Source: an uncultured Candidatus Saccharibacteria bacterium (GTDB taxonomy: Bacteria; Patescibacteriota; Doudnabacteria; UBA920). Taken from it: a DNA stretch of 64,000 bases. Below, one piece after another: positions 1 through 61,834 of this stretch. The first letter of the stretch is position 1. Each line of letters opens with the position of its first letter. The notes beneath the pieces were generated by a model. It ran no database searches, was not told where the DNA came from, and saw only the letters and a list, made by a program, of their open reading frames with translations. Position numbers and translations under genes: made by a program. The stretch covers positions 10,213 to 74,212 of the forward strand of contig CAZLNP010000001.1 in NCBI GenBank assembly GCA_964561085.1, written 5' to 3'.

Positions 1-8
1 CCCACCCC

Positions 9-1403
9 ATGTCCGCGGCAATTATTCTTGGGCAAATTTTTCCTGACGCAACCGCCATTACAGCGACCATTCTTCATGACATCACAGAAGATACCGACAC
101 AACAGACACAAATTTAAAAGAAGAGTTCAGCGAAGAAATTGCTGCGCTCGTAGATGGAGTAACTAAACTAGGCCACGTTCGCTTACGCAACAGCACAGAT
201 GAATACTACGTAGAAAATTTGCGCAAAATGTTTATTGCAACTAGCAAAGACATTCGCGTGATGCTAATTAAACTCGCTGACCGATTGCACAACATGAGAA
301 CAATTGGCGCTCTCTCCCCCGAGAAGCAAACCAAAATCGCCAGTGAGACTTTAGAAATGTATGCGCCCATCGCTGGGCGCCTCGGTATTGGTGCATGGAA
401 AGACGAACTCGAAGATCTATCTTTCAAGATTGTTGATCCAGAGAACTACGAAAAAACTGAACACCTTTTACAAGAACGTTTAGAAGAGCGTCAAAAAGGT
501 ACTAAAGAAATGCAAAAAGAGCTGGCTACAATTTTGCGCGTGGAAGGAATTAAGTTCAGAGATATTTCCGGTCGCATCAAGCGCATTTATTCTCTGTTTA
601 AAAAATTGGATCGCTACGACGGTGACATCACTAAAATCCACGACAAGATTGCCCTGCGCATCATTACTAAATCGACTGCGGATTGTTACGCTGCCTTAGG
701 CGCTATTCATAAACACTTTAGTCCGATGCCAGGCCGTGTAAAAGATTTTATCGCCATGCCAAAACCAAATGGCTACGAAAGTTTACACACCACTGTATTC
801 GATAGCGAAGGGCGTGCTTTTGAAGTGCAAATCCGCACAGATCTTATGCACGAAACTGCAGAACGCGGAATTGCCGCCCATTGGTTCTATGAAGAAACTG
901 GCAAAGATGATAGCGCCACTCCCCGACCGAACAAAGGTCCAAGCTGGTTCAAAGAGCTTCATGCTTGGCAGGAAGAGATGGCATCGCATCCAGAGGAGTT
1001 CTTAGAAGGTTTAAAAATTGATTTCTTCAAAGATCGAATTTTTGTTCTTACTCCTAAAGGTGATGTAAAAGATTTGCCAGTGGGTGCTTCGGTAATTGAT
1101 TTTGCTTTTTCAGTTCACTCTGACTTAGGCTACCAAATGTTAGGCGCTAAAATTAACGGAAAGATGGGGAAAATTTCAGATGAGCTGCATCAGGGAGATG
1201 TAGTGGAAATTCTAAAAGCTAAAAACGCCGCAACTCCTTCCAGGGATTGGCTAGTTTCCGCTAAAACTAGTCATGCCCGCGCCTTAATTCGCAAATACTT
1301 AGCCGAGCATGATAAAGGCCTATTCCAGAGAGTAAGAGAATTAAAACTCCAAGATATTTCCTCTCGTCTACCTGGCCTCCCAACCTTCTTCCGGAAAAAA
1401 TAA
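9..1403 (+). CDS. rel: Bifunctional (p)ppGpp synthetase/hydrolase Rel/SpoT-type (HD hydrolase + RelA_SpoT synthetase + TGS domain; short form without ACT); 5' end runs off the window
   Basis: HD motif HDITEDT, RelA/SpoT synthetase region (YESLHTTV, EVQIRT), TGS region (IFVLTPKGDVKDLP); ORF is open to the window edge. Confidence 0.85.
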   Translation: MSAAIILGQIFPDATAITATILHDITEDTDTTDTNLKEEFSEEIAALVDGVTKLGHVRLRNSTDEYYVENLRKMFIATSKDIRVMLIKLADRLHNMRTIGALSPEKQTKIASETLEMYAPIAGRLGIGAWKDELEDLSFKIVDPENYEKTEHLLQERLEERQKGTKEMQKELATILRVEGIKFRDISGRIKRIYSLFKKLDRYDGDITKIHDKIALRIITKSTADCYAALGAIHKHFSPMPGRVKDFIAMPKPNGYESLHTTVFDSEGRAFEVQIRTDLMHETAERGIAAHWFYEETGKDDSATPRPNKGPSWFKELHAWQEEMASHPEEFLEGLKIDFFKDRIFVLTPKGDVKDLPVGASVIDFAFSVHSDLGYQMLGAKINGKMGKISDELHQGDVVEILKAKNAATPSRDWLVSAKTSHARALIRKYLAEHDKGLFQRVRELKLQDISSRLPGLPTFFRKK

Positions 1404-1407
1404 AAAA

Positions 1408-1430
1408 CCACCGCGCGCGGTGGTTTTTTA
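1408..1430. terminator. Bidirectional Rho-independent terminator between convergent rel and ndk
   Basis: GC-rich hairpin accaccgcgcgcggtggt flanked by an A-run and a T-run. Confidence 0.7.
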
Positions 1431-1445
1431 TATATAGCAAAATTT

Positions 1446-1949
1446 TTAAGCTAAAGTGTGTTTAGTGTATGTAGGATTATGATCTACAAGCTCATCTTCA
1501 TTAAACCAAACATCAATTTCAGTCTTCGCTTCTTCCACAGTAGCAGAACCGTGAATTAAGTTATAAAGCTTGCCACCTGGATTAGCGTTAGCATGCTTAA
1601 ATGAAACATGGGAGTAATCTCCACGAATTGTTCCAGGTGTAGCAGACTTTGGCTCAGTCTCGCCGATCATCTTACGAACTAATTCTACTGCTTCGATTCC
1701 TTCTAGGACAATTGCCACAACTGGGCCAGATGCAAGCATCTGAATCATGCTGTTGCGGATTGCTTCACCACGGCGCACGGCTAAGTCTTCTGTATAGTGC
1801 TTACCGGCTGCTTCTTCTGTTGGTTGCATAAGCTTCATTCCAACAATTTTTAATCCTACGCGCTCGAAGCGTTGCAAGATCTCTCCTACTAGACCACGTT
1901 CTAAAGTATCTGGTTTTAGTAAGACTAAACTTTGTTCTGTTGTATCCAT
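1446..1949 (-). CDS. ndk: Nucleoside diphosphate kinase
   Basis: LLKPDTLERGLVGEIL and active-site NLIHGSA motif. Confidence 0.9.
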   Translation of the reverse strand: MDTTEQSLVLLKPDTLERGLVGEILQRFERVGLKIVGMKLMQPTEEAAGKHYTEDLAVRRGEAIRNSMIQMLASGPVVAIVLEGIEAVELVRKMIGETEPKSATPGTIRGDYSHVSFKHANANPGGKLYNLIHGSATVEEAKTEIDVWFNEDELVDHNPTYTKHTLA

Positions 1950-1973
1950 ATGTTCTTGCTTAGATTTGATTAA

Positions 1974-2705
1974 TTATTTATCAGAAACTACTGCTTTTGT
2001 AATTGTCACAGTATTTTTAGGTTTTCCACTTTGATCACCAGTCAAACCGATCTTGTCTACCACATCTTGACCTTCAACAACTTTACCAAAGATTGTGTAA
2101 AGTTTTCCTAAAGATTGGTTCAAGTCTGCCAAAGTAAAGAAGAATTGGCTACCGTTTGTATTTGGTCCGCTGTTAGCCATGGCAACAACACCCTTAACAT
2201 AACCTGTTTTAAAGCTAGGCGCATCAGGATTTAGTTCATCCTCAAACTTAGCTCCGAAAACACTTTCACCGCCAGCACCCGTACCTGTTGGATCACCACC
2301 CTGAACAACGAAGCCTGGGATAATTCTGTGGAAAGTTAGACAGTCATAGTAACCGCTTGCGGAAAGACGTAAGAAGTTTTCTACTGTCTTTGGAGCATCT
2401 TGATCAAATAACTGGATTTTTACATCACCGAATCCTTCAATGGACATAGTGACAAACTTATTCTTGATATCAATTTTTTCTTGCATAACTTTATTATTAA
2501 CTGTTCGAGTACACGGTGCGGAAGTTGTATTTTCCGACTGAGCTGTTTCTGATTTAGTATTATTGTCTTCTGCTGGATCTTGAGAATCTGTAACTTCGTT
2601 GCTGTTTTTGGTTTCATTACCGTTGCGACTAGAAAGGAAAAAAATAGCTCCGATTCCAACCACTACGACTACACCAATCAGCAAATATATTTGCCATGTT
2701 TTCAT
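1974..2705 (-). CDS. Peptidyl-prolyl cis-trans isomerase, cyclophilin type, with N-terminal membrane anchor and low-complexity linker
   Basis: FHRIIPGFVVQGGDPTGTGAGG cyclophilin signature; N-terminal TM helix. Confidence 0.85.
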   Translation of the reverse strand: MKTWQIYLLIGVVVVVGIGAIFFLSSRNGNETKNSNEVTDSQDPAEDNNTKSETAQSENTTSAPCTRTVNNKVMQEKIDIKNKFVTMSIEGFGDVKIQLFDQDAPKTVENFLRLSASGYYDCLTFHRIIPGFVVQGGDPTGTGAGGESVFGAKFEDELNPDAPSFKTGYVKGVVAMANSGPNTNGSQFFFTLADLNQSLGKLYTIFGKVVEGQDVVDKIGLTGDQSGKPKNTVTITKAVVSDK

Positions 2706-4159
2706 AGAGTATTTGTAATTATTTTTTCAAGTTTACCATATTTCGCCTGTTTTTGCAATCGACTATGTCTGCTATAAATATATAGTATTAAGACTGAATA
2801 ATAAATGAAGATTAACCATGGCGGCGCTATCACTTCCACGCTCGCATAAGGAACTAGCGCAAGCTTTTCGGTAATAAATAAAATTGCAGAAGTGATGAGT
2901 TGCGCGGGCATAACGAACACTCCCCCAATCACTGGCAAGAGCGCCAAAGCTCCGAACAACATAATCCAAGTCACAAATGGAAGCACTAGCAAGTTTGCGA
3001 GCGGGGCGATTACGCTAAAAGTATGGAAATGCAAAATGATGATAGGTGCAGTGAGAATAATTGCACCGAGCGTGGGTCTAAGCATATCGACAAGAAATGA
3101 ATCCTCTTTTTCTGGATGCTTGAGGTTAAAGGCCATTAGTACCCCAAAAGTTGCAGCGGCACTAAGTTGAAATCCAACATCCCAAACAACTATTCGAGGA
3201 TTAATAAGTATCATGATTACAGAAACTAAAAGCAGTGCATACAAACTGGCGTATTGCCTGCCCATTAACTGAGCAACCACCATAACTATAGCCATGATAC
3301 CGGCGCGCACCACCGCAGCCGTCGCCCCTGTTACCACCACAAACCCAATCACGATCAATATCGTCAGAATATTTGTGGCGCGCCTGCCTATGTACCACAC
3401 AAGCGCACCGCAAGCCGTCGCGATTATAGTCATGTTAAACCCTGACACAGCCACAATATGCGTCAGTCCTGTGATCTTAAAAGCTTGCTGAACTTCATCG
3501 GGAATATTTTGCTTCTGACCAATGAGCATACCAATAATTAATCCACCCTCTCGTTCAGGAAAAACTTTTCCTTGCTTTAGTACGAAGTTACGCACCGCTA
3601 ATAACGGCGTTCGCCAATTCCACTCCGCGCGCTTGAGAACAATCACACGAGGCTTCTTTAGTTGTGCGTAAACTTGCCAGCGCTGCAAATACCCAATGTA
3701 ATCAAAATCACTAAAATTTTCTGGTAATTCTAACTGACCACGAATCCAAACTCTATCCCCTTTCTTCAAACCTGGAATTGGTGTATACAAAGATCCGCGA
3801 ATGAATTGTGAATAGCCGTCTGGTAGCAAAGTGACCTGCATGTTACGACCACTCATGACCGGATCCATAGCAACAATTCCTTCTGTATTTATGTTTTCCC
3901 CTAAAAACTCTTGATACTCATTTTCAGAAAAAGATTTCCCAACATACAAATATCCAAAAACCAAACCCGCAATGATGCACATTATACTTAGCCCAACTAC
4001 TCGCGCGTTCTTCCTGGGTAAAGCCATAATTCCCATAGACAAAACTGCACCGCCTTGGAAAACGGTCCAAACTAGTGACGATGGAATATTATATAGTGAG
4101 CCTATTGCTACACCAACAATAAAACTGCAAAGCAAGATAGAAATAAAACGAGGCGCCAT
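2702..4159 (-). CDS. comEC: ComEC/Rec2-family DNA internalisation channel (competence domain only, no metallo-beta-lactamase domain)
   Basis: Multi-TM protein with a Competence-domain-like core (GLTHIVAVSGFNMTII); start codon lies inside the hisS terminator hairpin. Confidence 0.75.
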   Translation of the reverse strand: MAPRFISILLCSFIVGVAIGSLYNIPSSLVWTVFQGGAVLSMGIMALPRKNARVVGLSIMCIIAGLVFGYLYVGKSFSENEYQEFLGENINTEGIVAMDPVMSGRNMQVTLLPDGYSQFIRGSLYTPIPGLKKGDRVWIRGQLELPENFSDFDYIGYLQRWQVYAQLKKPRVIVLKRAEWNWRTPLLAVRNFVLKQGKVFPEREGGLIIGMLIGQKQNIPDEVQQAFKITGLTHIVAVSGFNMTIIATACGALVWYIGRRATNILTILIVIGFVVVTGATAAVVRAGIMAIVMVVAQLMGRQYASLYALLLVSVIMILINPRIVVWDVGFQLSAAATFGVLMAFNLKHPEKEDSFLVDMLRPTLGAIILTAPIIILHFHTFSVIAPLANLLVLPFVTWIMLFGALALLPVIGGVFVMPAQLITSAILFITEKLALVPYASVEVIAPPWLIFIYYSVLILYIYSRHSRLQKQAKYGKLEKIITNTL

Positions 4160-5688: not shown

Positions 5689-6059
5689 TATTTACTGCTT
5701 CTCCACAAAATGAATTTTAGGGCAGTGCTAATCTTTGACTTCTTTAACTTCGCAGCCCGATGAACAGTTTCACCTTTCACTTTTCTTAAAATCTGATCAG
5801 TTTTTTGGAATTTAATATAGCCATGGATGGATAGCCAACCTCCTACGACAATGAAAACCCATCCTGTGATTTGGGTGAGTGTATCTGTATCAAAAAACTT
5901 GAGCAATGTTGCCCCGGCCGCAATTAAAGTTAATGCTGTCCTAACATAAGACATAAATGATGTCTCATTCGTCATTATGGTTCTATCGACAGCTAAATAA
6001 TCACGAAGGATCATTCTCTCATGATCATGTTCGTAAGGAATGTATGGGTCTTCTGACAT
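5688..6059 (-). CDS. DUF202 (YidH-like) membrane protein
   Basis: RDYLAVDRT...YVRTALTL motif followed by 2-3 TM helices. Confidence 0.6.
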   Translation of the reverse strand: MSEDPYIPYEHDHERMILRDYLAVDRTIMTNETSFMSYVRTALTLIAAGATLLKFFDTDTLTQITGWVFIVVGGWLSIHGYIKFQKTDQILRKVKGETVHRAAKLKKSKISTALKFILWRSSK

Positions 6060-6167: not shown

Positions 6168-7946
6168 ATGCGAAAATTTTTAGCACCAGGTGAAGAGATT
6201 AAAAATCTTTCTACCTGGCAATTGATCAAAGACATAGTCAAGCTAGTCGGCCCATACAAAGGTCGTTTTATTGTTGGGAGTCTACTTAGATTAACCAGCG
6301 ATGCAGGCAACCTTTACTCTACTTATGCCATTGCTACAATGGTAACGATCTTTAGTCGGGGCAATATTGAAGACAGCGCTCAGCAAATTTGGTTATTGTT
6401 ATTCTTCTGGGCAATAGCTATAACCTATAAATTGTTTAGTAAGCATTTTGCCAAAGTTATTCTGTTTGGGATAGCACGGCAGATTCAGGTTAATGTGGAA
6501 TCAAATGCAATAAAGCATATGTTCCAGCTCGATATAGCTTGGCACGAAAAGGAAAATACTGGGAATAAACATCAGAGAATAAAAAATGCTTCCATTGGTT
6601 ATGCTCAAATTTTGTTAATGTGGGCAAATAACCTTGTCGCTATTGTAGTAGAATTTGTAGGTATAATTGTAATTATCTATCAATTCAATAGACCAATTGC
6701 TATTGCCATGGCAATATTCCTAATTGCTTTCTCAGTTGTCTCAAAATTTATGCGTAGTAAAGTTGGGCTAGCTTCCAATCAGACCAACATACGAGGCGAA
6801 GAAATCTCTGGATTGCAATTTGAAGCCATATCGAATATTCGCACAGTCAAGATTATGTCTATGATCAAAACCATATCGGAGACTTTAGATTTCCGCGCTG
6901 GTAGATTATTTGAGGCAATGAAGAAGCTTATCTTTTGGTCACAAAATAGAAACACAGTTGAAGCCATTACAAGCCAGGCATTCAAAACGGGTATAATGAT
7001 TTACATCATTGCCGGAATTATTAACGGCCGATTAGAAGCTGGTCTATTAATTCTATTCTATAACTACTTCAACACTCTATGGGGCGCAGTAGAAGAACTT
7101 GCCAATGTTAGTCAAGATATTCTTGTGGCACGTTTTAGCATTTCTCGTCTTAAAGAAATAATGAATGAACCAGTAACTATTGATGATGAAACTGGCAAAC
7201 TTGAGTTCCCAATTAAATGGGGAAAAATCGAACTTAAAAATGTCTCCTTTAAGTATGGTCAAAATGAAGTTTTAAAAAATATTAGCTTCACTATTAATAG
7301 AGGTGAAAAGATTGGAATTATCGGATTATCGGGTGCGGGAAAATCCACGTTATTCAAACTACTCCTAAAAGAATATGAGAACTTTGAAGGAGAAATTTTA
7401 ATTGATGATACCCCTATTCAACAGATCAGCAAGATTGATTACTTTAATCATACAGCTGTGGTATTACAAGAAACTGAAGTATTCAACTTCTCTTTACGAG
7501 AGAATATATATTTAGCAGGCCCTGGTACTGCAAACAAAGAAGTCGAACTTCAAAAGGCTTTAGAAGTAGCTCACGTCACCGATTTCTTGCAAAAGCTCCC
7601 TGACGGTGTTGATACCCCAATCGGTGAAAAAGGTGTACGCCTTTCAGGTGGAGAGAAACAACGTGTAGGCATTGCCAGAGCAGTATTTAAACAGCCCCAA
7701 CTCCTTCTCCTTGACGAAGCTACTTCCCATTTGGACCTAGAGTCTGAAGAAAAAATCCAAGATTCTTTACATAAGTTCTTTAACACCGTGACTGCAGTCG
7801 TAATCGCTCATCGACTTACAACTATTAAAGAAATGGATAAGATTATTGTCATAGAAGACGGTGAAATCCTTGAATCTGGAAACTTTGCAGATCTAACTGC
7901 CAAGCGTGGCCGTTTCTTTGAGCTGTGGGAGAAACAAAGACTTTAG
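6168..7946 (+). CDS. ABC exporter, fused permease + ATP-binding domain (MsbA/multidrug-like)
   Basis: N-terminal 6-TM domain; C-terminal NBD with Walker A GLSGAGKST, ABC signature LSGGEKQR, Walker B LLLLDEATS. Confidence 0.85.
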   Translation: MRKFLAPGEEIKNLSTWQLIKDIVKLVGPYKGRFIVGSLLRLTSDAGNLYSTYAIATMVTIFSRGNIEDSAQQIWLLLFFWAIAITYKLFSKHFAKVILFGIARQIQVNVESNAIKHMFQLDIAWHEKENTGNKHQRIKNASIGYAQILLMWANNLVAIVVEFVGIIVIIYQFNRPIAIAMAIFLIAFSVVSKFMRSKVGLASNQTNIRGEEISGLQFEAISNIRTVKIMSMIKTISETLDFRAGRLFEAMKKLIFWSQNRNTVEAITSQAFKTGIMIYIIAGIINGRLEAGLLILFYNYFNTLWGAVEELANVSQDILVARFSISRLKEIMNEPVTIDDETGKLEFPIKWGKIELKNVSFKYGQNEVLKNISFTINRGEKIGIIGLSGAGKSTLFKLLLKEYENFEGEILIDDTPIQQISKIDYFNHTAVVLQETEVFNFSLRENIYLAGPGTANKEVELQKALEVAHVTDFLQKLPDGVDTPIGEKGVRLSGGEKQRVGIARAVFKQPQLLLLDEATSHLDLESEEKIQDSLHKFFNTVTAVVIAHRLTTIKEMDKIIVIEDGEILESGNFADLTAKRGRFFELWEKQRL

Positions 7947-7960
7947 AAAATAGCCAAAAC

Positions 7961-8052
7961 AAAAAACCTTCCTGCTATATTTGAACGATTGTCGAGCCGA
8001 GGCACGGGATGCCAAAGGCGAGACTCAGTGAAAATATAGCAGGAAGGTTTTT
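7961..8052. terminator. Long hairpin (perfect 17-bp stem, 50-nt structured loop) between convergent ABC exporter and ftsZ
   Basis: aaccttcctgctatatt (7966-7982) pairs perfectly with aatatagcaggaaggtt (8033-8049); A-run before and T-run after. Confidence 0.55.
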
Positions 8053-8062
8053 AAATTTGTAG

Positions 8063-9301
8063 TTATTTCATTTTCTTGCGAATGAACGCAGGGATATCTA
8101 GTTCATCATCAGGATCTTCATCGGAAGATTGCATTGGCACAGGATCAGCCGGCTTAGGGCTAAACAATGGCTTGCGCACTTCTGGACGAGGAATTTCTGG
8201 ACGGGACTCTTCAACATCAGGAGACTGGAAAGCAGACATACTAGACAACGGTGGAGTCTGAGCAGGAGCGTTAGTAATTAACGGCTTCATTGGCTCATCG
8301 TTTACAGGGGCAAAGTTCAACGCAGATGGACGACGATTGTGTTCATCGAATCCAGTAGCGATAACAGTGATGCGAATCTCATCGCCCATTGTTTCATCAA
8401 TAACAGTACCGAATTTAACGCGAGCATCAGGATCAACATTTTTAGTAATAACGCGAGCAGCTTCATCAATTTCAAACATTCCAAGATCAGAGCCACCAGT
8501 AATGTTGAACAGTACGCCTTGAGCACCATCAATAGTCATATCAAGCAATGGAGAGTTCACAGCAGCCTTAGCAGCGATCTCAGCACGACCTTCACCAGAA
8601 GCTCGTCCAATACCCATCATGGCTGTACCAGCGTCTTGCATAATAGTGCGAATGTCAGCAAAGTCAGCGTTAACCACACCGTGGGTAGTAATCAAGTCGG
8701 AGATGCCAGCGATACCTTGGCGAAGCACTTCATCAACAGTTTTGAATGCATCAATTAGAGAAGTCTTCTTGTCGATGATTTGTAAGATACGATCGTTCTG
8801 TACAGAAATAATTGCGTCTACTTTATCTTTCAAATTTTCATAACCAGCCTCAGCAATTTCTTTACGCTTGCTTCCTTCAAAAGTGAAAGGCTTCGTGACA
8901 ACAGCGATTGTTAAGATGTCGCGGTTCTTTGCTAGTTCAGCAACAATTGGTGCTGCACCAGTTCCAGTTCCTCCACCAAGACCACAAGTGATGAACACCA
9001 TGTCTGCATTTGAGATAACTTCTTCAATTTCTTCTTGTGATTCTTCTGCGGCTTGACGGCCAAGTTCAGGATTCATTCCAGAACCAAGTCCCTTGGTAAT
9101 AGATTTACCAATGTGAACTTTTTTGTCAGCCATGTTATTGTGCAAGGCTTGTGCATCTGTGTTAACAGAAATAAATTCTACGCCGCGGATTCCTAGCTCA
9201 GCCATACGAGCTACGGCAGTTGTACCGGATCCACCGATACCCATAACTTTAATGCGAGCGAATGTTTCAATTTTTGGTTTAACTTCCATAGTCTTTTTCA
9301 T
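8063..9301 (-). CDS. ftsZ: Cell division GTPase FtsZ
   Basis: Tubulin signature GGGTGTGAAP; C-terminal Pro-rich tail. Confidence 0.95.
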   Translation of the reverse strand: MKKTMEVKPKIETFARIKVMGIGGSGTTAVARMAELGIRGVEFISVNTDAQALHNNMADKKVHIGKSITKGLGSGMNPELGRQAAEESQEEIEEVISNADMVFITCGLGGGTGTGAAPIVAELAKNRDILTIAVVTKPFTFEGSKRKEIAEAGYENLKDKVDAIISVQNDRILQIIDKKTSLIDAFKTVDEVLRQGIAGISDLITTHGVVNADFADIRTIMQDAGTAMMGIGRASGEGRAEIAAKAAVNSPLLDMTIDGAQGVLFNITGGSDLGMFEIDEAARVITKNVDPDARVKFGTVIDETMGDEIRITVIATGFDEHNRRPSALNFAPVNDEPMKPLITNAPAQTPPLSSMSAFQSPDVEESRPEIPRPEVRKPLFSPKPADPVPMQSSDEDPDDELDIPAFIRKKMK

Positions 9302-56817: not shown

Positions 56818-56847
56818 TTGACACTTTCCCTTGTCCCGTGCTATAAT
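56818..56847 (+). promoter_or_regulatory. Consensus sigma70-type promoter (TTGACA-18-TATAAT) driving a structured leader of about 200 nt plus RNase J1
   Basis: Perfect -35 and -10 hexamers; shares the TTTGACACTTT core with the secG promoter. Confidence 0.65.
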
Positions 56848-57058
56848 GTTTTTACAAGTTAACTCTCAGTTTCTAAGTGGAAGCTCGTGTGACCGAAATT
56901 ACTCGGCACAACATTAGTTCCCATTTGGTAATTGTGAAGTGTTAGGCGGCCCCGGAAGCCACTTTCCTCACACCTAAAGATATAAAAATTAGTAAACAAA
57001 AGTTTTTTGTGTTTCCGCTTTTATTTGAGCCCTGCTCTTTTAATAACGGTTTCCGGAA

Positions 57059-58957
57059 TTGCCGGCCTACATAGACAGACCCATGGTCTCGTTTACAGCC
57101 ACAAACTTAACGCTAAAACTTCGAAAGCAAATTATGATAAGCAAACCAACCGGGACTCCTAACGCCCGACCAGCGCCTAGACGAGTAGCGCCAACAAGTG
57201 CTGCGCCGCATCGTTCAGCTACAGCGACTCGCCCAACAGCGGTACCATCTTCCATCACTGCCCCAACAGGCAACTCAAAAGCAACGTTATCTCGCAACGT
57301 ACTTCGCGTTATTCCACTTGGTGGTTTAGAAGAAGTTGGTGCAAACATGATGGCTTACGAATACGGTGAAGATATTATTATCGTTGACTGTGGATTCGCG
57401 TTCCCAGATGAAACAACTCCTGGTATCGATTATATTATTCCAGAAACTAAGTACTTAGAAGATCGCAAGAAGAATATTCGTGCGATGTTCATTACTCATG
57501 GTCACATGGACCACATTGGTGCTATTCCCTACTTACTCGCTAAGTTAGGTGACCCACCAATTTACACAATGACTTTGTCTGCGGGTATGATCAAAAAACG
57601 TTTGGAAGAATTCAACTTGCAAGGTCGTGTTAAATTAAACGCTTTGACAGTTGATGACACAGTTCCAGTGGGCAACTTCCAAGTGAAGTTCTTCTCTGTA
57701 AACCACAACATTCCAGATTCTGTTGGTCTATCTATTAATACCCCAATCGGTCAGATCATTCACACTGGTGACTGGAAGTTTGACCACACTCCAATTAACG
57801 AACGCACTACGGACTTCCACAAGATTGCTACCTTTGGTGGTAATGGCGTGTTAGCTCTAATGTCTGACTCTACTAACGCTAACAAGCCTGGGTACTGTCT
57901 ATCTGAACGCGATATTGGTACAAGTATTGAGAGAATTTTCTCAGATGCTAAAGGTCGCATTATTTTTGCGAGCTTCTCATCTTTAATCTCTCGTATGCAA
58001 CAAGTTCTAGACTTCTCCGCAAAACATAACCGCAAAGTTATTGTGACCGGACGATCTATGGTTAACACTTTAGAAACTGCCATTTCATTGGGCTACCTAA
58101 AAGTTTTACCTAAACTGATCATCAAGTCTGAACAAGCTGCTAAATATCCTGATAACCAATTAACAGTTCTAACCACCGGTGCACAAGGCGAAGAAGCTTC
58201 TCAGCTAGCTCGCATGTCCCGCGGCGAACATCGTTCTATTAAGATTAAAACTGGCGATACTGTCATCATTTCATCTTCCCCTATTCCAGGTAACGAACGC
58301 TCCATTGTTGCTGTTCTAGATAACTTAACTCGCCAAGGCGCTACAGTTATTTATAACAAGATGCTGGACATTCACACCTCTGGGCATGCCCAACAAGAAG
58401 AATTGAAATTGATGATGCAATTAACCAAGCCAAAGTTCTTTGTCCCTATTCACGGTGAACACCACATGTTGGTTGGACACTCTAAATTAGCTCAAAGCAT
58501 TGGTATTCCTGAAAACAATTGTTTCGTTCTAGGTAATGGTTCCGTATTGGAGTTCAACGCTAACGGCGAAGCTCGTGTTCTTAATGAGAAGGTTGAATCA
58601 GGATATGTGTTCGTAGACGGACTGGGCGTTGGAGACGTTGGTGAAGTGGTTATTCGTGACCGCCAGCTAATGGCTCAAGACGGTATGTTCGTGATCATCT
58701 CTACAATTGATCGTAAAACAAGTAAGCTCGTAAATCCTCCCGAAATACTTTCACGAGGATTCGTTTACATGAAGAATAACGAAGAACTATTGAGAGAAGT
58801 TAAGCACGAAATCCGCAAGATGATCGAAACTCATGCTGGCAAAGGTGAAGCTGACTATGCTGACCTACGCCAAGAGATTCGTGATAGCGTTGGAGAGTAT
58901 CTATTCCAGAAGACTCAACGTCGTCCTATGATCTTGCCAGTTATTATTGAAGTTTAA
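57059..58957 (+). CDS. rnj: Ribonuclease J (paralog 1) with low-complexity Pro/Ala/Thr-rich N-terminal extension (start uncertain)
   Basis: Metallo-beta-lactamase HGHMDHIG, beta-CASP and RNase J C-terminal domain. Confidence 0.9.
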   Translation: MPAYIDRPMVSFTATNLTLKLRKQIMISKPTGTPNARPAPRRVAPTSAAPHRSATATRPTAVPSSITAPTGNSKATLSRNVLRVIPLGGLEEVGANMMAYEYGEDIIIVDCGFAFPDETTPGIDYIIPETKYLEDRKKNIRAMFITHGHMDHIGAIPYLLAKLGDPPIYTMTLSAGMIKKRLEEFNLQGRVKLNALTVDDTVPVGNFQVKFFSVNHNIPDSVGLSINTPIGQIIHTGDWKFDHTPINERTTDFHKIATFGGNGVLALMSDSTNANKPGYCLSERDIGTSIERIFSDAKGRIIFASFSSLISRMQQVLDFSAKHNRKVIVTGRSMVNTLETAISLGYLKVLPKLIIKSEQAAKYPDNQLTVLTTGAQGEEASQLARMSRGEHRSIKIKTGDTVIISSSPIPGNERSIVAVLDNLTRQGATVIYNKMLDIHTSGHAQQEELKLMMQLTKPKFFVPIHGEHHMLVGHSKLAQSIGIPENNCFVLGNGSVLEFNANGEARVLNEKVESGYVFVDGLGVGDVGEVVIRDRQLMAQDGMFVIISTIDRKTSKLVNPPEILSRGFVYMKNNEELLREVKHEIRKMIETHAGKGEADYADLRQEIRDSVGEYLFQKTQRRPMILPVIIEV

Positions 58958-58967
58958 AGTTAGTTTC

Positions 58968-59055
58968 GCAGAAGAATATTGATACGAAAACACGTCACCT
59001 TCGCCCTGCTACGCAGGTCGTGTTCCTATCGTTTTCTTAATCAATATTCTTCTGC
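58968..59055 (+). repeat. Conserved structured element copy 1 (88-nt extended hairpin, conserved 55-nt core) immediately 3' of RNase J1
   Basis: Outer stem gcagaagaatattgat / atcaatattcttctgc; inner core acgaaaacacgtcaccttcgccctgctacgcaggtcgtgttcctatcgttttc. Confidence 0.6.
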
Positions 59056-59130
59056 TAAGAACTTTCATCTTCCCAACAACTGTTGGGGGTGAATGAGCGA
59101 AGAAAATTTTGAAAGATTTTCTCCATTCAT

Positions 59131-61053
59131 TTGCTAAGGGTTTATAGTTGGGTGAGCCGTGGAGGCTACTTACGTAAACAGCAATATCTAATCAATTGCG
59201 ATGTCTCGGGTAAAAGGTGCGCGCATCTTCCGACTTACGTTGCCAAACTTAATTTAAATATGAAACGAACCACAACTACTGGTCTTAAGCCAGTGCGTAC
59301 CTATGAACGTGCGCAGCTTTTTAGTGACAAACTAGATAGTGCCGTGAGCGCTGAGGACTCTAACAAATCCGAGCCGTTGCCAGCTACTCAAAACACTTTG
59401 CGAATAATTCCGTTTGGTGGAGTTGAGGAAATTGGTATCAACATGACAGCTTATGAATACGGCGATGACATTATCATTGTCGATATGGGTCTAGGATTTC
59501 CCGAGAAAAAATATTCAGGAATCAATTATATTATTCCGAACTATCAATGGCTGGAAGAAAACAAGAAGCGAATCCGCGCGGTAATAATTACTCATGCGCA
59601 CATGGATCACATTGGGGCTATCCCCTACATTCTTCCCCGCCTTGGCAATCCTCCGCTTTACAGCATGCCACTTTCAATTGGATTTATTAAAAGCCGTCTA
59701 CAAGAATTTAATTTGATAGAACAGTTGCCTCTGCACGCCATTTCTCAAGATGATGTTCTGCGCTTTGGAAACTTCACTGTGGAATTTTTCCGCGTGAACC
59801 ATAATATTCCTGACAGTGTTGGGCTCGCAATTAGCAGTCCAGCCGGCCGAGTAATTCACACCGGTGATTGGAAGTTAGACTTTACCCCTGGAGACCAGCA
59901 ACCCGCAGAAATGGATAAGCTGGCGAAATGGGGTGGTGAAGGCGTATTAGCCCTCCTTTCTGACTCTACCAACGCCCAGAAGCCAGGTTTTTGTGCCTCT
60001 GAAGCCCAACTGCATGACGCTCTTGAACAAATGTTTAGCCAAGCCAAAGACCGCATAATCTTTACCAGCAATGCCCTAATTTTAACTCGCATTCAACAGG
60101 TACTAGATATTGCAGTCCGGCTTAACCGTAAGGTTGCCATTGTCGGTCGCTCTATGCAAAACAATATTGAGATCGCTCTAAGTCTCGGGTATATCAAACT
60201 TGTTCCTGGAACAATTGTTTCTACGGCACAAGCCAAGCCTATGCCAGGTAATAAGCTAATCGTTTTAACAACCGGAGCTCAAGGAGAAGATAATGCTGCG
60301 TTAGCACGGGCCGCTGATGGTAGTCATAGAGACTTGCAGCTAAAGCCATCTGACACAGTTGTTATCTCTGCCACCCCTATTCCTGGAAATGAAACCGCCC
60401 AAAGCAATTTAATTTCTGAACTGCTAAAGCAAGGGCTAAATGTAATTCACCACAAACTATTTGATATTCACATTTCAGGCCATGCTCAACAAGAAGAATT
60501 AAAAATGATGATGGATTTGGTTAAGCCTAAACATCTTATCCCGATTCACGGTTATCATAGTTTCTTAACTGCTCATGCGAATTTAGCTATTGGAATGGGA
60601 ATGCCAAAAGAAAATGTTTTCATTGCCCATAACGGAACTGTATTTGAATTCGAATCTGACAAGCCAGCTCGAATGCTCCACAAACGTCTGCCAGCAAGCT
60701 ATGTGCATGTTGATGAAACTGCCATCGGCCAAGTAGACGCGTCTTTGTTCTGCGACAAAGAGGCCATGGCCGCAGCTGGAGTCGTAAGTGTTATTGTAAC
60801 GATAAATTCGGACAAGAAAAAATTAGCGAAAAAATCGGAACTCATAACGCGCGGCTTCACTTACAATAAAAACAGTGGCAGTCTCTTGAGAGAACTAACT
60901 TACGAAGTTGATAAACACGTTGAACAGTATCTGAAAAAGTCCTCAACAAATATAATGACTTTAGAATCAGAGCTTAAAAGTGTTTTAACAACCTATATCT
61001 TGCAAAAAACTGGACGTGAACCTTTGGTTCTGCCAGTTGTTGTGGAAGTTTAG
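59131..61053 (+). CDS. rnj: Ribonuclease J (paralog 2); likely true start is the in-frame ATG near 59260 (MKRTTTT...)
   Basis: Metallo-beta-lactamase HAHMDHIG, beta-CASP, RNase J C-terminal domain; about 60-65 percent identical to paralog 1 over the core. Confidence 0.9.
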   Translation: MLRVYSWVSRGGYLRKQQYLINCDVSGKRCAHLPTYVAKLNLNMKRTTTTGLKPVRTYERAQLFSDKLDSAVSAEDSNKSEPLPATQNTLRIIPFGGVEEIGINMTAYEYGDDIIIVDMGLGFPEKKYSGINYIIPNYQWLEENKKRIRAVIITHAHMDHIGAIPYILPRLGNPPLYSMPLSIGFIKSRLQEFNLIEQLPLHAISQDDVLRFGNFTVEFFRVNHNIPDSVGLAISSPAGRVIHTGDWKLDFTPGDQQPAEMDKLAKWGGEGVLALLSDSTNAQKPGFCASEAQLHDALEQMFSQAKDRIIFTSNALILTRIQQVLDIAVRLNRKVAIVGRSMQNNIEIALSLGYIKLVPGTIVSTAQAKPMPGNKLIVLTTGAQGEDNAALARAADGSHRDLQLKPSDTVVISATPIPGNETAQSNLISELLKQGLNVIHHKLFDIHISGHAQQEELKMMMDLVKPKHLIPIHGYHSFLTAHANLAIGMGMPKENVFIAHNGTVFEFESDKPARMLHKRLPASYVHVDETAIGQVDASLFCDKEAMAAAGVVSVIVTINSDKKKLAKKSELITRGFTYNKNSGSLLRELTYEVDKHVEQYLKKSSTNIMTLESELKSVLTTYILQKTGREPLVLPVVVEV

Positions 61054-61060
61054 TTTGATA

Positions 61061-61150
61061 GATGAAAGGTTGCCTACACGAAAACACGTCACCTTCGTCC
61101 TGCTGTGCAGGCCGTGTTCCTATAGTTTTCTTAGTAAGCAACCTTTCATC
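61061..61150 (+). repeat. Conserved structured element copy 2 (90-nt extended hairpin) immediately 3' of RNase J2
   Basis: Outer stem gatgaaaggttgc / gcaacctttcatc; inner core acgaaaacacgtcaccttcgtcctgctgtgcaggccgtgttcctatagttttc. Confidence 0.6.
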
Positions 61151-61165
61151 AACAAGTAATCTTCA

Positions 61166-61217
61166 AAAAATAAGAGCGGCCGATTCAACACGTGATGTGT
61201 TGTCTCGACCGCTTTTT
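61166..61217. terminator. Bidirectional terminator hairpin, repeat copy A
   Basis: aaaaataagagcggccgattcaacac-gtgat-gtgttgtctcgaccgcttttt. Confidence 0.65.
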
Positions 61218-61219
61218 GA

Positions 61220-61765
61220 TTAAAAGTCCTCAGGACTTGCCGAAGGCATGGTCACAGGCAAAGATTCGTCTGTGGTAAAGCTGTAGAATAAAGCCTGCGG
61301 ACCTAGCGCCATTTTATACAGCCTATCTAGCTCTAGATCCTCCTCAAGCTGAAGCTTTTTAGCTTTGATCAGCTTGATGGTTTGGCGAACTTCTTTCTGC
61401 ATCCGCATTAGTAAATCGCCGGCATGCTTTTCGGAAAGTTGAGCGTAATTATCCGCCTTGTCAGAGATGAACGTTGGCTTGAGTGGATCCCAATAAACGT
61501 GATCGCATGACCAACCAAAATTGAAGTTGCCAAACTGCTCCAACCTATAAAAGTAGGAGCCGTCAAATTCAATGACATCGGTTGCAATCTCAAATTGCTT
61601 AACCTCTTCCCTAACGCTGATTAGATAGTTAAAGTGCTTGAAGATGTTTCCAAGCCCAGATATGTTTTCTCCCATAATATAAACCCTCTTTTTGTTGATG
61701 TATAAGTACCCAATAGTTGATGTCTTACGACTAAACATAGTAAGACAAATGGTCTTCTGTGTCAA
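61220..61765 (-). CDS. Hypothetical protein; probable true start at 61675 (151 aa, MGENISG...) with good RBS and TTGACA-17-TACTAT promoter upstream
   Basis: ORF flanked on both sides by near-identical terminator hairpins; agaggg RBS 8 nt upstream of the internal ATG. Confidence 0.5.
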   Translation of the reverse strand: MTQKTICLTMFSRKTSTIGYLYINKKRVYIMGENISGLGNIFKHFNYLISVREEVKQFEIATDVIEFDGSYFYRLEQFGNFNFGWSCDHVYWDPLKPTFISDKADNYAQLSEKHAGDLLMRMQKEVRQTIKLIKAKKLQLEEDLELDRLYKMALGPQALFYSFTTDESLPVTMPSASPEDF

Positions 61766-61782: not shown

Positions 61783-61834
61783 AAAAATAAGAGCGGCCGA
61801 TTCAACACATAGTGTGTTGTCTCGACCGCTTTTT
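61783..61834. terminator. Terminator hairpin, repeat copy B (same arms as copy A, different loop)
   Basis: aaaaataagagcggccgattcaacac-atagt-gtgttgtctcgaccgcttttt. Confidence 0.65.

Follow-up and report, generated by a model that had tools for sequence, protein, structure and literature searches.

Two long hairpins at the ends of tandem RNase J genes

We analyzed a stretch of 64,000 nt of contig CAZLNP010000001.1 (hereafter the window), from a tiny-genome member of the Patescibacteria, and focused on a structured element that follows each of two tandem RNase J genes, rnj1 and rnj2, near the end of the window. Both genes have the full beta-CASP/RNase J domain set (the Pfam matches of rnj1 are beta-CASP, RNase_J_C, Lactamase_B and RMMBL), and the closest public RNase J proteins come from Patescibacteria metagenome bins. 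The initial annotation of this locus put the two proteins at 60-65% amino-acid identity; we measured 50%. As that annotation reported, a hairpin of about 90 nt lies directly after each gene (58968-59055, copy 1; 61061-61150, copy 2), starting 10 nt past the stop codon of rnj1 and 7 nt past that of rnj2. The element has no existing annotation and is ordinary in kind, a stem-loop at a gene end with an unexplained conserved core. It represents a constrained structure at the end of the gene of the main RNA-degrading enzyme, in bacteria whose RNA metabolism is almost unstudied.

Table 1. Features of the rnj locus (positions in the window).
Feature	Positions	Strand	Basis or remark
rnj1 (RNase J paralog 1)	57137-58957	+	Start set by homologues of 606 aa; mechanical open reading frame start is TTG 57059
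Copy 1, whole structure	58949-59072	+	Fold of 58940-59085: -44 kcal/mol, z = -7.3
Copy 1 outer helix, 5' arm GCAGAAGAATATTGAT	58968-58983	+	Perfect pairing with 59040-59055
Copy 1 core, 56 nt	58984-59039	+	Fold; comparison with copy 2 and strains
Copy 1 outer helix, 3' arm ATCAATATTCTTCTGC	59040-59055	+	Perfect pairing with 58968-58983
Rest of the rnj1-rnj2 spacer	59073-59250	+	Alignment of six rnj2-bearing loci
rnj2 (RNase J paralog 2)	59251-61053	+	RNase J domain set; 50% identical to rnj1
Recombination tract carrying copy 2	61026-61165	+	Comparison with L095 and L011
Copy 2, whole structure	61045-61164	+	Fold of 61045-61170: -42.6 kcal/mol, z = -6.5
Copy 2 outer helix, 5' arm GATGAAAGGTTGC	61061-61073	+	Perfect pairing with 61138-61150
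Copy 2 core	61078-61133	+	51/56 identical to copy 1; differences in the loop, the mismatch pair and one internal loop
Copy 2 outer helix, 3' arm GCAACCTTTCATC	61138-61150	+	Perfect pairing with 61061-61073
Two-tier hairpin between A-run and T-run	61166-61217	.	Present after rnj2 in all relatives

The near-identity of the two cores is borne out (91% over 56 nt), and a 24-nt core pattern with up to three mismatches has two sites only in the 64 kb (expected 0). The ~90-nt hairpins fold at -36.4 and -37.0 kcal/mol (z = -7.8 and -6.5, copies 1 and 2 respectively), values that no shuffled sequence equals, and both of their DNA strands fold about equally well. Their outer arms are unrelated in sequence, yet each pair is perfectly Watson-Crick, as had been described (16 bp in copy 1, 13 bp in copy 2). 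The pairings proposed for the core stand in part: CCTGC/GCAGG and GAAAAC/GTTTTC are retained, whereas the full AACACG/CGTGTT pairing cannot form alongside GAAAAC/GTTTTC, since three 5'-side bases are common to both. The minimum-energy fold pairs GAAAAC with GTTTTC, CG with CG, and CCTGC with GCAGG. The core of copy 1 would be composed of the GAAAAC/GUUUUC helix, two C/U-rich internal loops of 10 nt, the CG/CG pairs, a C-U mismatch and the hairpin CCUGC-UAC-GCAGG.

Longer folds indicate that the structure exceeds the hairpins described initially. The final codons of both genes (GAAG..UUUA) are predicted to pair with a ..CUUC further downstream, which places each stop codon inside a helix. In copy 1 the outermost tier GAAGUUUAAAGUU/AACUUUCAUCUUC, complementary at 11 of 13 positions, includes the stop codon of rnj1 (58955-58957) and encloses the 16-bp helix and the core. 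In copy 2 the last codons GAAGUUUAG pair with downstream UAAUCUUC around the 13-bp helix, a 3-bp tier (UAC/GUA) and the core. The element is thus modelled as three nested parts, namely a helix that encloses the stop codon, a perfect helix of 13-16 bp, and the 56-nt core. Leaving aside the outer tier, the helices of 16 + 6 bp (copy 1) and 13 + 3 + 6 bp (copy 2) stack across internal loops of 1-3 nt, and the predicted fold reaches the roughly two turns of near-perfect double-stranded RNA expected of an RNase III-type helix or of an exonuclease block.

The hairpins are not simple intrinsic terminators, in line with the initial annotation. No T-run follows either of them (TAAGAACTTTCATC comes after copy 1, AACAAGTAATC after copy 2), a terminator scan lists neither, and their inner part measures 56-64 nt, against the 3-8-nt loop of an intrinsic terminator. 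The separate terminator reported after copy 2, a hairpin with a T-run at 61166-61217, is indeed present and is kept in relatives. Judging by its sequence, it is likely the bidirectional terminator of rnj2 and of the open reading frame (ORF) 61220-61765 on the - strand; the simple terminator scan misses it because its loop is itself a hairpin. The comparison against Rfam 15 that the initial annotation called for found no RNA family that describes the hairpins: the whole window gave one tRNA only at gathering thresholds, the region 58900-61300 gave only a chance snoRNA match within rnj2 at E <= 10, and the related elements of types B, C and D described below gave nothing above threshold.

Copy 2 is a recent duplicate

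Orthologous loci, designated here by L numbers, were retrieved by exact-protein look-ups. The gene rnj2 is confined to a small clade. The plain terminator alone comes after it in L092 (RNase J2 89% identical to that of the window), L093 and L094 (82-83%), L001 (80%), and L002 (77%). Most tellingly, the site is also empty in a strain very close to the window, L095, whose rnj2 is 94.3% identical in nucleotides and 97% in amino acids: there, 17 nt separate the gene from the terminator, while copy 1 is identical to that of the window. The filled allele, with copy 2 present, is found in the window and in strain L011.

The filled allele has about 100 nt after the stop region of rnj2 that are absent from L095, beyond which the terminator is again identical. 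On the upstream side, the final 28 nt of rnj2 contain 6 positions at which window and L095 differ, and the 1775 nt before them contain 109 (6% background; p = 0.006). L011 differs from L095 at 1 position in the preceding 130 nt and at 5 in the last 25 nt of the gene; four of these five, all of which also separate the window from L095, shift rnj2 towards the rnj1 sequence. The units of both copies have common boundaries, GAAGTTTA and ATCTTC. These alignments show copy 2 to be a recent, strain-specific duplicate that arose by recombination. By the same comparisons, the element originally followed rnj1 only and was then copied to the end of rnj2 in the lineage of the window, with an upstream junction placed within the last ~25 nt of the coding sequence, where the paralogs are alike. 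Two routes are possible: an rnj1-type end may have served as donor in an ectopic conversion, or an allele already converted in this way may have been imported.

This history changes the meaning of the resemblance between the two copies. The initial annotation took the preservation of the core since the divergence of the paralogs as an argument for selection. However, copy 2 is missing from L095 and from the five other rnj2-bearing relatives and is hence recent; the similarity of the cores reflects youth, and the main argument for long-term selection is removed. Both copies would lie after RNase J genes because homology between the gene ends guided the recombination, and not by reason of function. 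A conserved core and covarying stems next to diverged paralogs can thus mimic an ancient regulatory RNA, and one strain with an empty site is enough to reveal its youth. The evolutionary history of the element, a recent recombinational copy, is much firmer than its function. Strains with and without copy 2 provide a natural experiment on the effect of the helix on the mRNA.

Distribution of the element among relatives

The element at the end of rnj1 varies between closely related lineages. The same core (type A) occurs in L092, with a different outer arm and on a contig that ends inside the element. In L001 and L002 an element of the same build and position has an unrelated inner sequence (type B), with compensatory differences in both helices. 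A third core (type C) lies downstream of rnj1 in four genomes without rnj2 (L005 6846-6898, L006 2069-2121, L007 7638-7688 and L008 5574-5621); in L007 a methyltransferase gene stands between rnj1 and the element. Between these genomes the 53-nt core of type C has 92-98% identity, against 50-68% at third codon positions. Its short stems covary (TAAGAAAGTT/AACTTTCTTA versus AATAAGAAAAT/ATTTTCTTATT), and its predicted fold is weak (z = -1 to -2.6). No element was found at the rnj1 end of L093, L094, L003 and L004. These differing states occur despite RNase J1 identities of 85-95% in L092, L001, L002, L005-L008, L093 and L094; the type A core is absent from the rnj1 orthologues of all of these but L092, as it is from the rnj2 orthologues outside the species and in strain L095.

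Searches on a larger scale did not extend this distribution. Over 808 kb of related loci, a covariance model of the core matched only the copies of the window, L011, L095 and L092; within the window it gave no site besides the two copies, even with filters off. A scan for the exact pattern in 185,579 species-representative genomes retrieved only copy 2 of the representative of this species, which is a fragmented metagenome-assembled genome, plus two chance intragenic matches in unrelated phyla. The pattern does not occur in 2.9 million viral contigs, and we rejected a phage origin. A protein-based metagenome scan for close relatives gave only distant RNase J loci, at 44-62% identity. The alternative raised initially, a dispersed repeat similar to the repetitive extragenic palindromic (REP) elements, is not supported by these searches, which gave no further copy. 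Judging by these comparisons, the element is a lineage-restricted and strain-variable 3'-end structure, and not an ancient RNase J regulator.

These results bear directly on the proposal of the initial annotation, a dedicated cis element through which RNase J would regulate or shield the mRNAs that encode it, retained behind both paralogs ever since the gene duplication. Both copies do follow rnj genes directly and include their stop codons, they are constrained between strains (see below), and similarly built hairpins stand after rnj1 in L001 and L002, as well as after the rnj gene of several distant relatives. Yet copy 2 is recent and dispensable, and the empty sites largely refute this reading. 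At orthologous rnj1 ends the core is found in one sister lineage only; other loci, at 85-95% protein identity, have an unrelated core or no element, and in L007 another gene separates rnj1 from the local element. The varying states among such close orthologues do not support a dedicated regulator, and we regard it as very unlikely.

Constraint between strains and the probable strand of the structure

The youth of copy 2 does not exclude selection at shorter time scales, and the comparison of strains points to it. Between the window and L011, the two hairpins differ at 4 of 178 positions against 75 of 724 third codon positions (p = 2e-4). Between the window and L095, copy 1 shows no difference in 88 nt, against 80 in 591 third codon positions (p = 1e-5). 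Further away, the 3' 21 nt of the core are identical to those of L092 at 19 positions, against 65% at third positions (p = 0.009), next to an arm that is only ~50% identical. On this measure the hairpins, far better kept than synonymous sites, are under selection on short time scales. The claim of selection on an RNA structure hence stands for short-term constraint between strains and falls for long-term conservation since the divergence of the paralogs.

The few substitutions within the core carry some information on the strand. The copy 1 core of L011 has three substitutions relative to the window. Among the three distinct type A cores, each of the 39 pair cells holds a standard pair in the true register, whereas sliding the register leaves only 38-56% paired. 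The 8 substitutions among the three cores all spare the 13 predicted pairs: seven are at unpaired positions, and the eighth turns a G-C pair into G-U on the + strand, which would be an A-C mismatch on the other strand. This pattern favours an RNA of the + strand, albeit from few events.

The same evidence weighs on the idea that the element is a site acting as DNA, either a cruciform or a protein-binding palindrome for the control of recombination, replication or transcription. All stems are perfect palindromes on both strands, CCTGC-NNN-GCAGG is a palindrome of 13 bp, and the element borders a variable gene island, the next ORF being flanked by two near-identical terminator hairpins. However, only the + strand can accommodate as G-U the sole substitution within a helix, the conserved internal loops of 10 nt have an asymmetric sequence that a palindrome bound by a dimer would not need, and no recombinase or integrase was found in the neighbourhood (ten ORFs of 52.3-63.9 kb scanned). 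Integron attC boxes are lacking too, and altogether a DNA-level site seems highly improbable. The attC sites had been suggested by the succession of ORF, hairpin, ORF and hairpin, and we rejected them in the absence of RYYYAAC ... GTTRRRY boxes: the sole AAC/GTT pair, GAAAAC...GTTTTCT, has the wrong purine/pyrimidine pattern, and the rnj hairpins have a conserved tip and a variable base, whereas attC sites have the reverse.

Origin of the perfect arms

The arms have a peculiar pattern of change: they contain no G-U in 29 bp, they are constrained between strains, and they are almost unrecognisable among copy 1, copy 2 and L092. The initial annotation regarded their full covariation as an argument for selection at the RNA level. 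Template switching during replication copies one arm of an inverted repeat onto the other; a single event of this kind is documented to give rise to a perfect stem or to compensatory changes of several bases (PMC8794818), and the same process keeps bacterial inverted repeats perfect (PMC5941160). Since this process can both make and repair perfect arms in one step, their covariation is weak evidence for selection on RNA pairing and fails as proof. Template switching represents a non-selective source of arms that are perfect and wholly replaced.

The rnj arms resemble template-switch inverted repeats (PMC8794818; PMC5941160) in being exactly Watson-Crick, without G-U intermediates, and in changing on both sides together. 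Creation in a single event from neighbouring sequence would have a parallel as well, as the 3' arm of copy 2 and its neighbours resemble the flank just downstream of copy 1 and not the copy 1 arm (TAAG-AA-CTTTCATC, 14/16 in a local alignment; 0.6% of shuffles score as high). It is suggestive that the 5' arm of copy 2 would then be a reverse-complement copy of a 3' arm derived from this flank, although the alignment is ambiguous. The copy 2 arms may descend from the arms of copy 1 or from its flank. Template switching is, however, a mutational mechanism and not a function, and it leaves the conserved core and the conservation of the hairpins between strains unexplained.

Other elements with long stems

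Unrelated folded sequences in long stems are also found outside this clade. At rnj loci of distant Patescibacteria from the metagenome scan we identified a fourth type of element, type D (L056 5685-5786, L068 5822-5935, and L027 ~5784-5883 on the reverse strand), whose ~70-nt core (..CGCUUUUUUCGCCCGCGAGGGCGAAAGGAUGA..UUCG..AACCCGCUCAAAAG..) has GNRA and UUCG tetraloops and a three-way junction. Its stems are unrelated and perfect, of 10-22 bp, and those of L056 and L068 (12 bp and 22 bp) double as terminator stems; in L027 the core is inverted relative to rnj. A promoter-like string, TTGACTYTTTCGCTTTTTTC, with TATTAT or TATTCT after it, precedes the RNase P RNA gene in L090 (7701-7719) and rnj in L051 (3634-3652). 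These 19 nt also make up the 5' part of the type D core in L056 (5700-5718), where the -10 box is lacking.

Four unrelated cores (types A to D) thus follow rnj, and a fifth occurs within the window itself. At 7962-8052, between the convergent genes 6168-7946 (+) and 8063-9301 (-), a perfect 21-bp stem (AAAAACCTTCCTGCTATATTT / AAATATAGCAGGAAGGTTTTT) with flanking A-run and T-run encloses 49 nt that fold on their own. Its sequence suggests a bidirectional terminator whose 'loop' is large and structured; the build is that of the rnj hairpins and the core is unrelated. The window has three stems of at least 12 bp around 25-110 nt, where 0.37 would be expected. A set of loci totalling 820 kb, each selected because it contains rnj and several belonging to one species, has 48 long-stem hairpins, of which about 10 follow rnj. 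Such hairpins are not confined to rnj, and this fraction, which is not clearly above the gene share of rnj, is a further point against a dedicated RNase J element; given how the loci were selected, we make no claim of enrichment after rnj.

A tRNA-Leu(CAG) gene lies upstream of rnj in most genomes, and in L017 (3523-3631) and L058 (3596-3711) only it is enclosed in perfect inverted repeats, with arms of 19-20 nt made of the acceptor stem and a continuation of 12-13 bp. L058 also has a second copy of part of the tRNA, ATGCCGAAAGGCTTGA, immediately past the 3' arm. Long stems as a general way of processing small RNAs were rejected: among the 71 tRNAs in the loci, only that of L017 has more than 5 bp of flank pairing.

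One may speculate that these elements form an undescribed class in Patescibacteria: small folded RNA cores of 50-80 nt, each within a long perfect helix at the end of a gene (in many cases behind rnj or within the stem of a terminator), with lineages exchanging the cores as cassettes. Nucleases would process the helix as a stalk and thereby free the core as a small RNA, and recombination or insertion targeted to hairpins would spread the cores. We attach little credence to this generalization, which seems improbable as a whole. If the pattern of different folded cores in long perfect helices at the same locus holds, it merits a systematic survey.

The element of the window could also be palindromic DNA, selfish or neutral, without any cellular role: a low-copy relative of REPs or of miniature inverted-repeat transposable elements (MITEs), or a product of template switching, which settles at gene ends and whose copies are similar because they are recent. 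Such DNA would account for the presence/absence polymorphism between strains, for sister lineages that carry unrelated cores, or no core, at one and the same position, and for the two orientations of type D. The interval between rnj and the tRNA synthetase gene is a hot spot of gene content, the arms are perfect and fold on both strands without any G-U, and long perfect stems surround unrelated contents elsewhere, as at 7962-8052 and around the tRNA-Leu of L017 and L058. Like MITEs, the rnj element measures ~100 nt, folds into a hairpin, and is present or absent between strains at gene ends. Unlike them, it has two copies instead of many, both at rnj ends, with no further one in the rest of the window, the 808 kb of loci, the viral contigs or, at the stringency of the exact pattern, the species' representative. 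Its termini are variable, the arms of the two copies being unrelated where MITEs have conserved terminal inverted repeats, and there is no direct repeat indicative of target-site duplication at the junctions of the filled site (window and L011) compared with the empty one (L095). No transposase lies nearby. Finally, the hairpins evolve well below the synonymous rate between strains, and the type C core is much better kept than third codon positions. A selfish or neutral palindrome is therefore unlikely in our view.

Possible roles of the hairpins

For a function, we consider it possible, though somewhat short of probable, that the element is an RNA structure of the + strand that works in cis, providing the rnj transcript with a stable helix or a processing site. 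The layout of the locus is compatible with such a transcript. A promoter scan identified a perfect sigma-70 match with a TG extension upstream of rnj1 (TTGACA-18-TATAAT at 56818-56847) and no sigma-70 match in the rnj1-rnj2 spacer; since the spacer also holds a conserved rnj2 leader, rnj1 and rnj2 are probably co-transcribed, with the copy 1 hairpin within the intercistronic RNA. The element would be transcribed as part of this rnj1(-rnj2) mRNA. A stacked helix of ~25 bp without a U-tract would not terminate transcription and would be an ideal block to 3'-to-5' exonucleases, as well as a substrate for a double-strand-specific enzyme of the RNase III type. It may give the rnj1 mRNA a stable 3' end, or cut the joint rnj1-rnj2 transcript in two, and in this way adjust how much of each RNase J protein is made relative to the other. 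Recognition by sequence, through a protein or tertiary folding, would fall to the conserved core, whereas the arms would need only to pair, being kept perfect and quickly replaced by template switching between them. We counted the type B elements in favour of a cis-acting structure, since they are positional orthologues after rnj1 in L001 and L002, with the same architecture and compensatory changes.

Several observations weigh against this cis-acting role. A good terminator follows copy 2 at a distance of 15 nt, and at such a place an additional exonuclease block looks redundant. Strains and relatives manage without copy 2, and L093 and L094 without any element, which makes any function dispensable. 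The absence of G-U in 29 bp and the equal folding of both strands fit a DNA-level palindrome as well, and the 8 substitutions avoid the predicted pairs with no more than marginal significance (p = 0.05). For an element that acts purely in cis on stability, it would be odd to have three unrelated cores at one position among sister lineages, and the similar type D element of distant relatives occurs in both orientations relative to rnj. Function, strand, 3' ends and cleavage are all inferred.

Known systems share some features with the element and differ in others. The REP hairpins of the malE-malF spacer of E. coli and the hairpins of the Rhodobacter puf operon block 3'-to-5' exonucleases and set the relative stability of cistrons. 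The rnj hairpins resemble these stabilisers: they are very stable, lack a U-tract, and stand between genes of one orientation, immediately past a stop codon. Unlike REPs, which are ~35 nt long with a conserved stem sequence and hundreds of copies, they have two copies with unrelated stems and a conserved 56-nt core. The helices processed by RNase III, in rRNA stalks and in the autoregulatory leaders of rnc and pnp, have in common with them a long near-perfect helix flanking a conserved RNA, the need for pairing only, and the link with a ribonuclease gene. However, the known autoregulatory helices are in 5' leaders and conserved across orthologues, whereas the rnj hairpin is 3', variable between strains, and cleaved in prediction only. 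Its core does not accompany the gene across orthologues in the way expected of autoregulation similar to that of rne, rnc or pnp.

The separation between a core conserved in sequence and a helix that needs only to pair also suits a small stable RNA gene located in the 3' region of rnj, in which the helix would be the processing stalk for an RNase III-type enzyme and the released core of ~56 nt would act in trans. The two exposed C/U-rich loops of 10 unpaired nt, and the behaviour of the cores as exchangeable cassettes at one locus, are in agreement with this, as is the type D analogue, with its tetraloops and three-way junction, which is found in either orientation to rnj as would an independent gene. 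On the other hand, no promoter of its own was found, the distribution (one species-level lineage and L092) is narrow for a trans-acting regulator, and tRNAs in long stems are exceptions (1-2 of ~71), so that stalks are not a general mode of processing. Targets did not emerge either. When the loops were paired with the 54 translation start regions of the window, no duplex energy stood out; the rnj2 leader ranks 2nd and 4th, at only -10.4 kcal/mol. The C/U-rich loops (UCACCUUC and UUCCUAU) resemble anti-Shine-Dalgarno sequences, but genes of the window show no Shine-Dalgarno sequences to mask, and we discarded this role. We likewise discarded the arms as antisense guides: none has a match elsewhere in the window beyond chance. 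A trans-acting small RNA appears quite unlikely.

The rnj2 leader and the surroundings of the locus

A better candidate for the control of RNase J than the 3' hairpins lies in the rest of the rnj1-rnj2 spacer (59073-59250), which by its sequence is a candidate regulatory leader of rnj2. It contains a small hairpin (CCCAACAACTGTTGGG), whose stem covaries (AGCC..GGCT versus AGCT..AGCT), a second hairpin ending in TTCAYTTGC, and a conserved leader with an invariant GGTGYGCGCATCT. This spacer is kept in all rnj2-bearing relatives, whose third codon positions are ~50% identical, and an nhmmer profile of the rnj2 leaders matches rnj2 leaders only. No Shine-Dalgarno sequence precedes the ATG of rnj2. 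Homology between the leaders of rnj1 and rnj2 was suggested by a GCC..GGAAGCCAC visible by eye in both, and was rejected, as the profile matches no rnj1 leader at E <= 1. The promoter of rnj1 is followed by a leader of ~290 nt before the gene (promoter and leader, 56818-57136), a length unusual in so compact a genome. In the twelve genes viewed (window ORFs of at least 100 aa), the 25 nt upstream of the start codon are A/U-rich and without a Shine-Dalgarno-like purine motif.

A more distant metagenome contig (L015 ~1-3017) carries another tandem RNase J pair, with proteins 72% and 54% identical to rnj1; at the level of these sequences, tandem rnj paralogs recur in the group.

Downstream of rnj2, gene content in the interval up to a class I tRNA synthetase gene differs in every relative examined. 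In the window, two terminator-like hairpins of 52 nt (61166-61217 and 61783-61834), 94% identical, stand on either side of ORF 61220-61765 (-). This ORF has no Pfam match and evolves fast: its divergence from L011 is 16% in 116 nt, compared with ~4.5% for the aligned 2.75 kb. L095 has an ORF of 151 aa in its stead.

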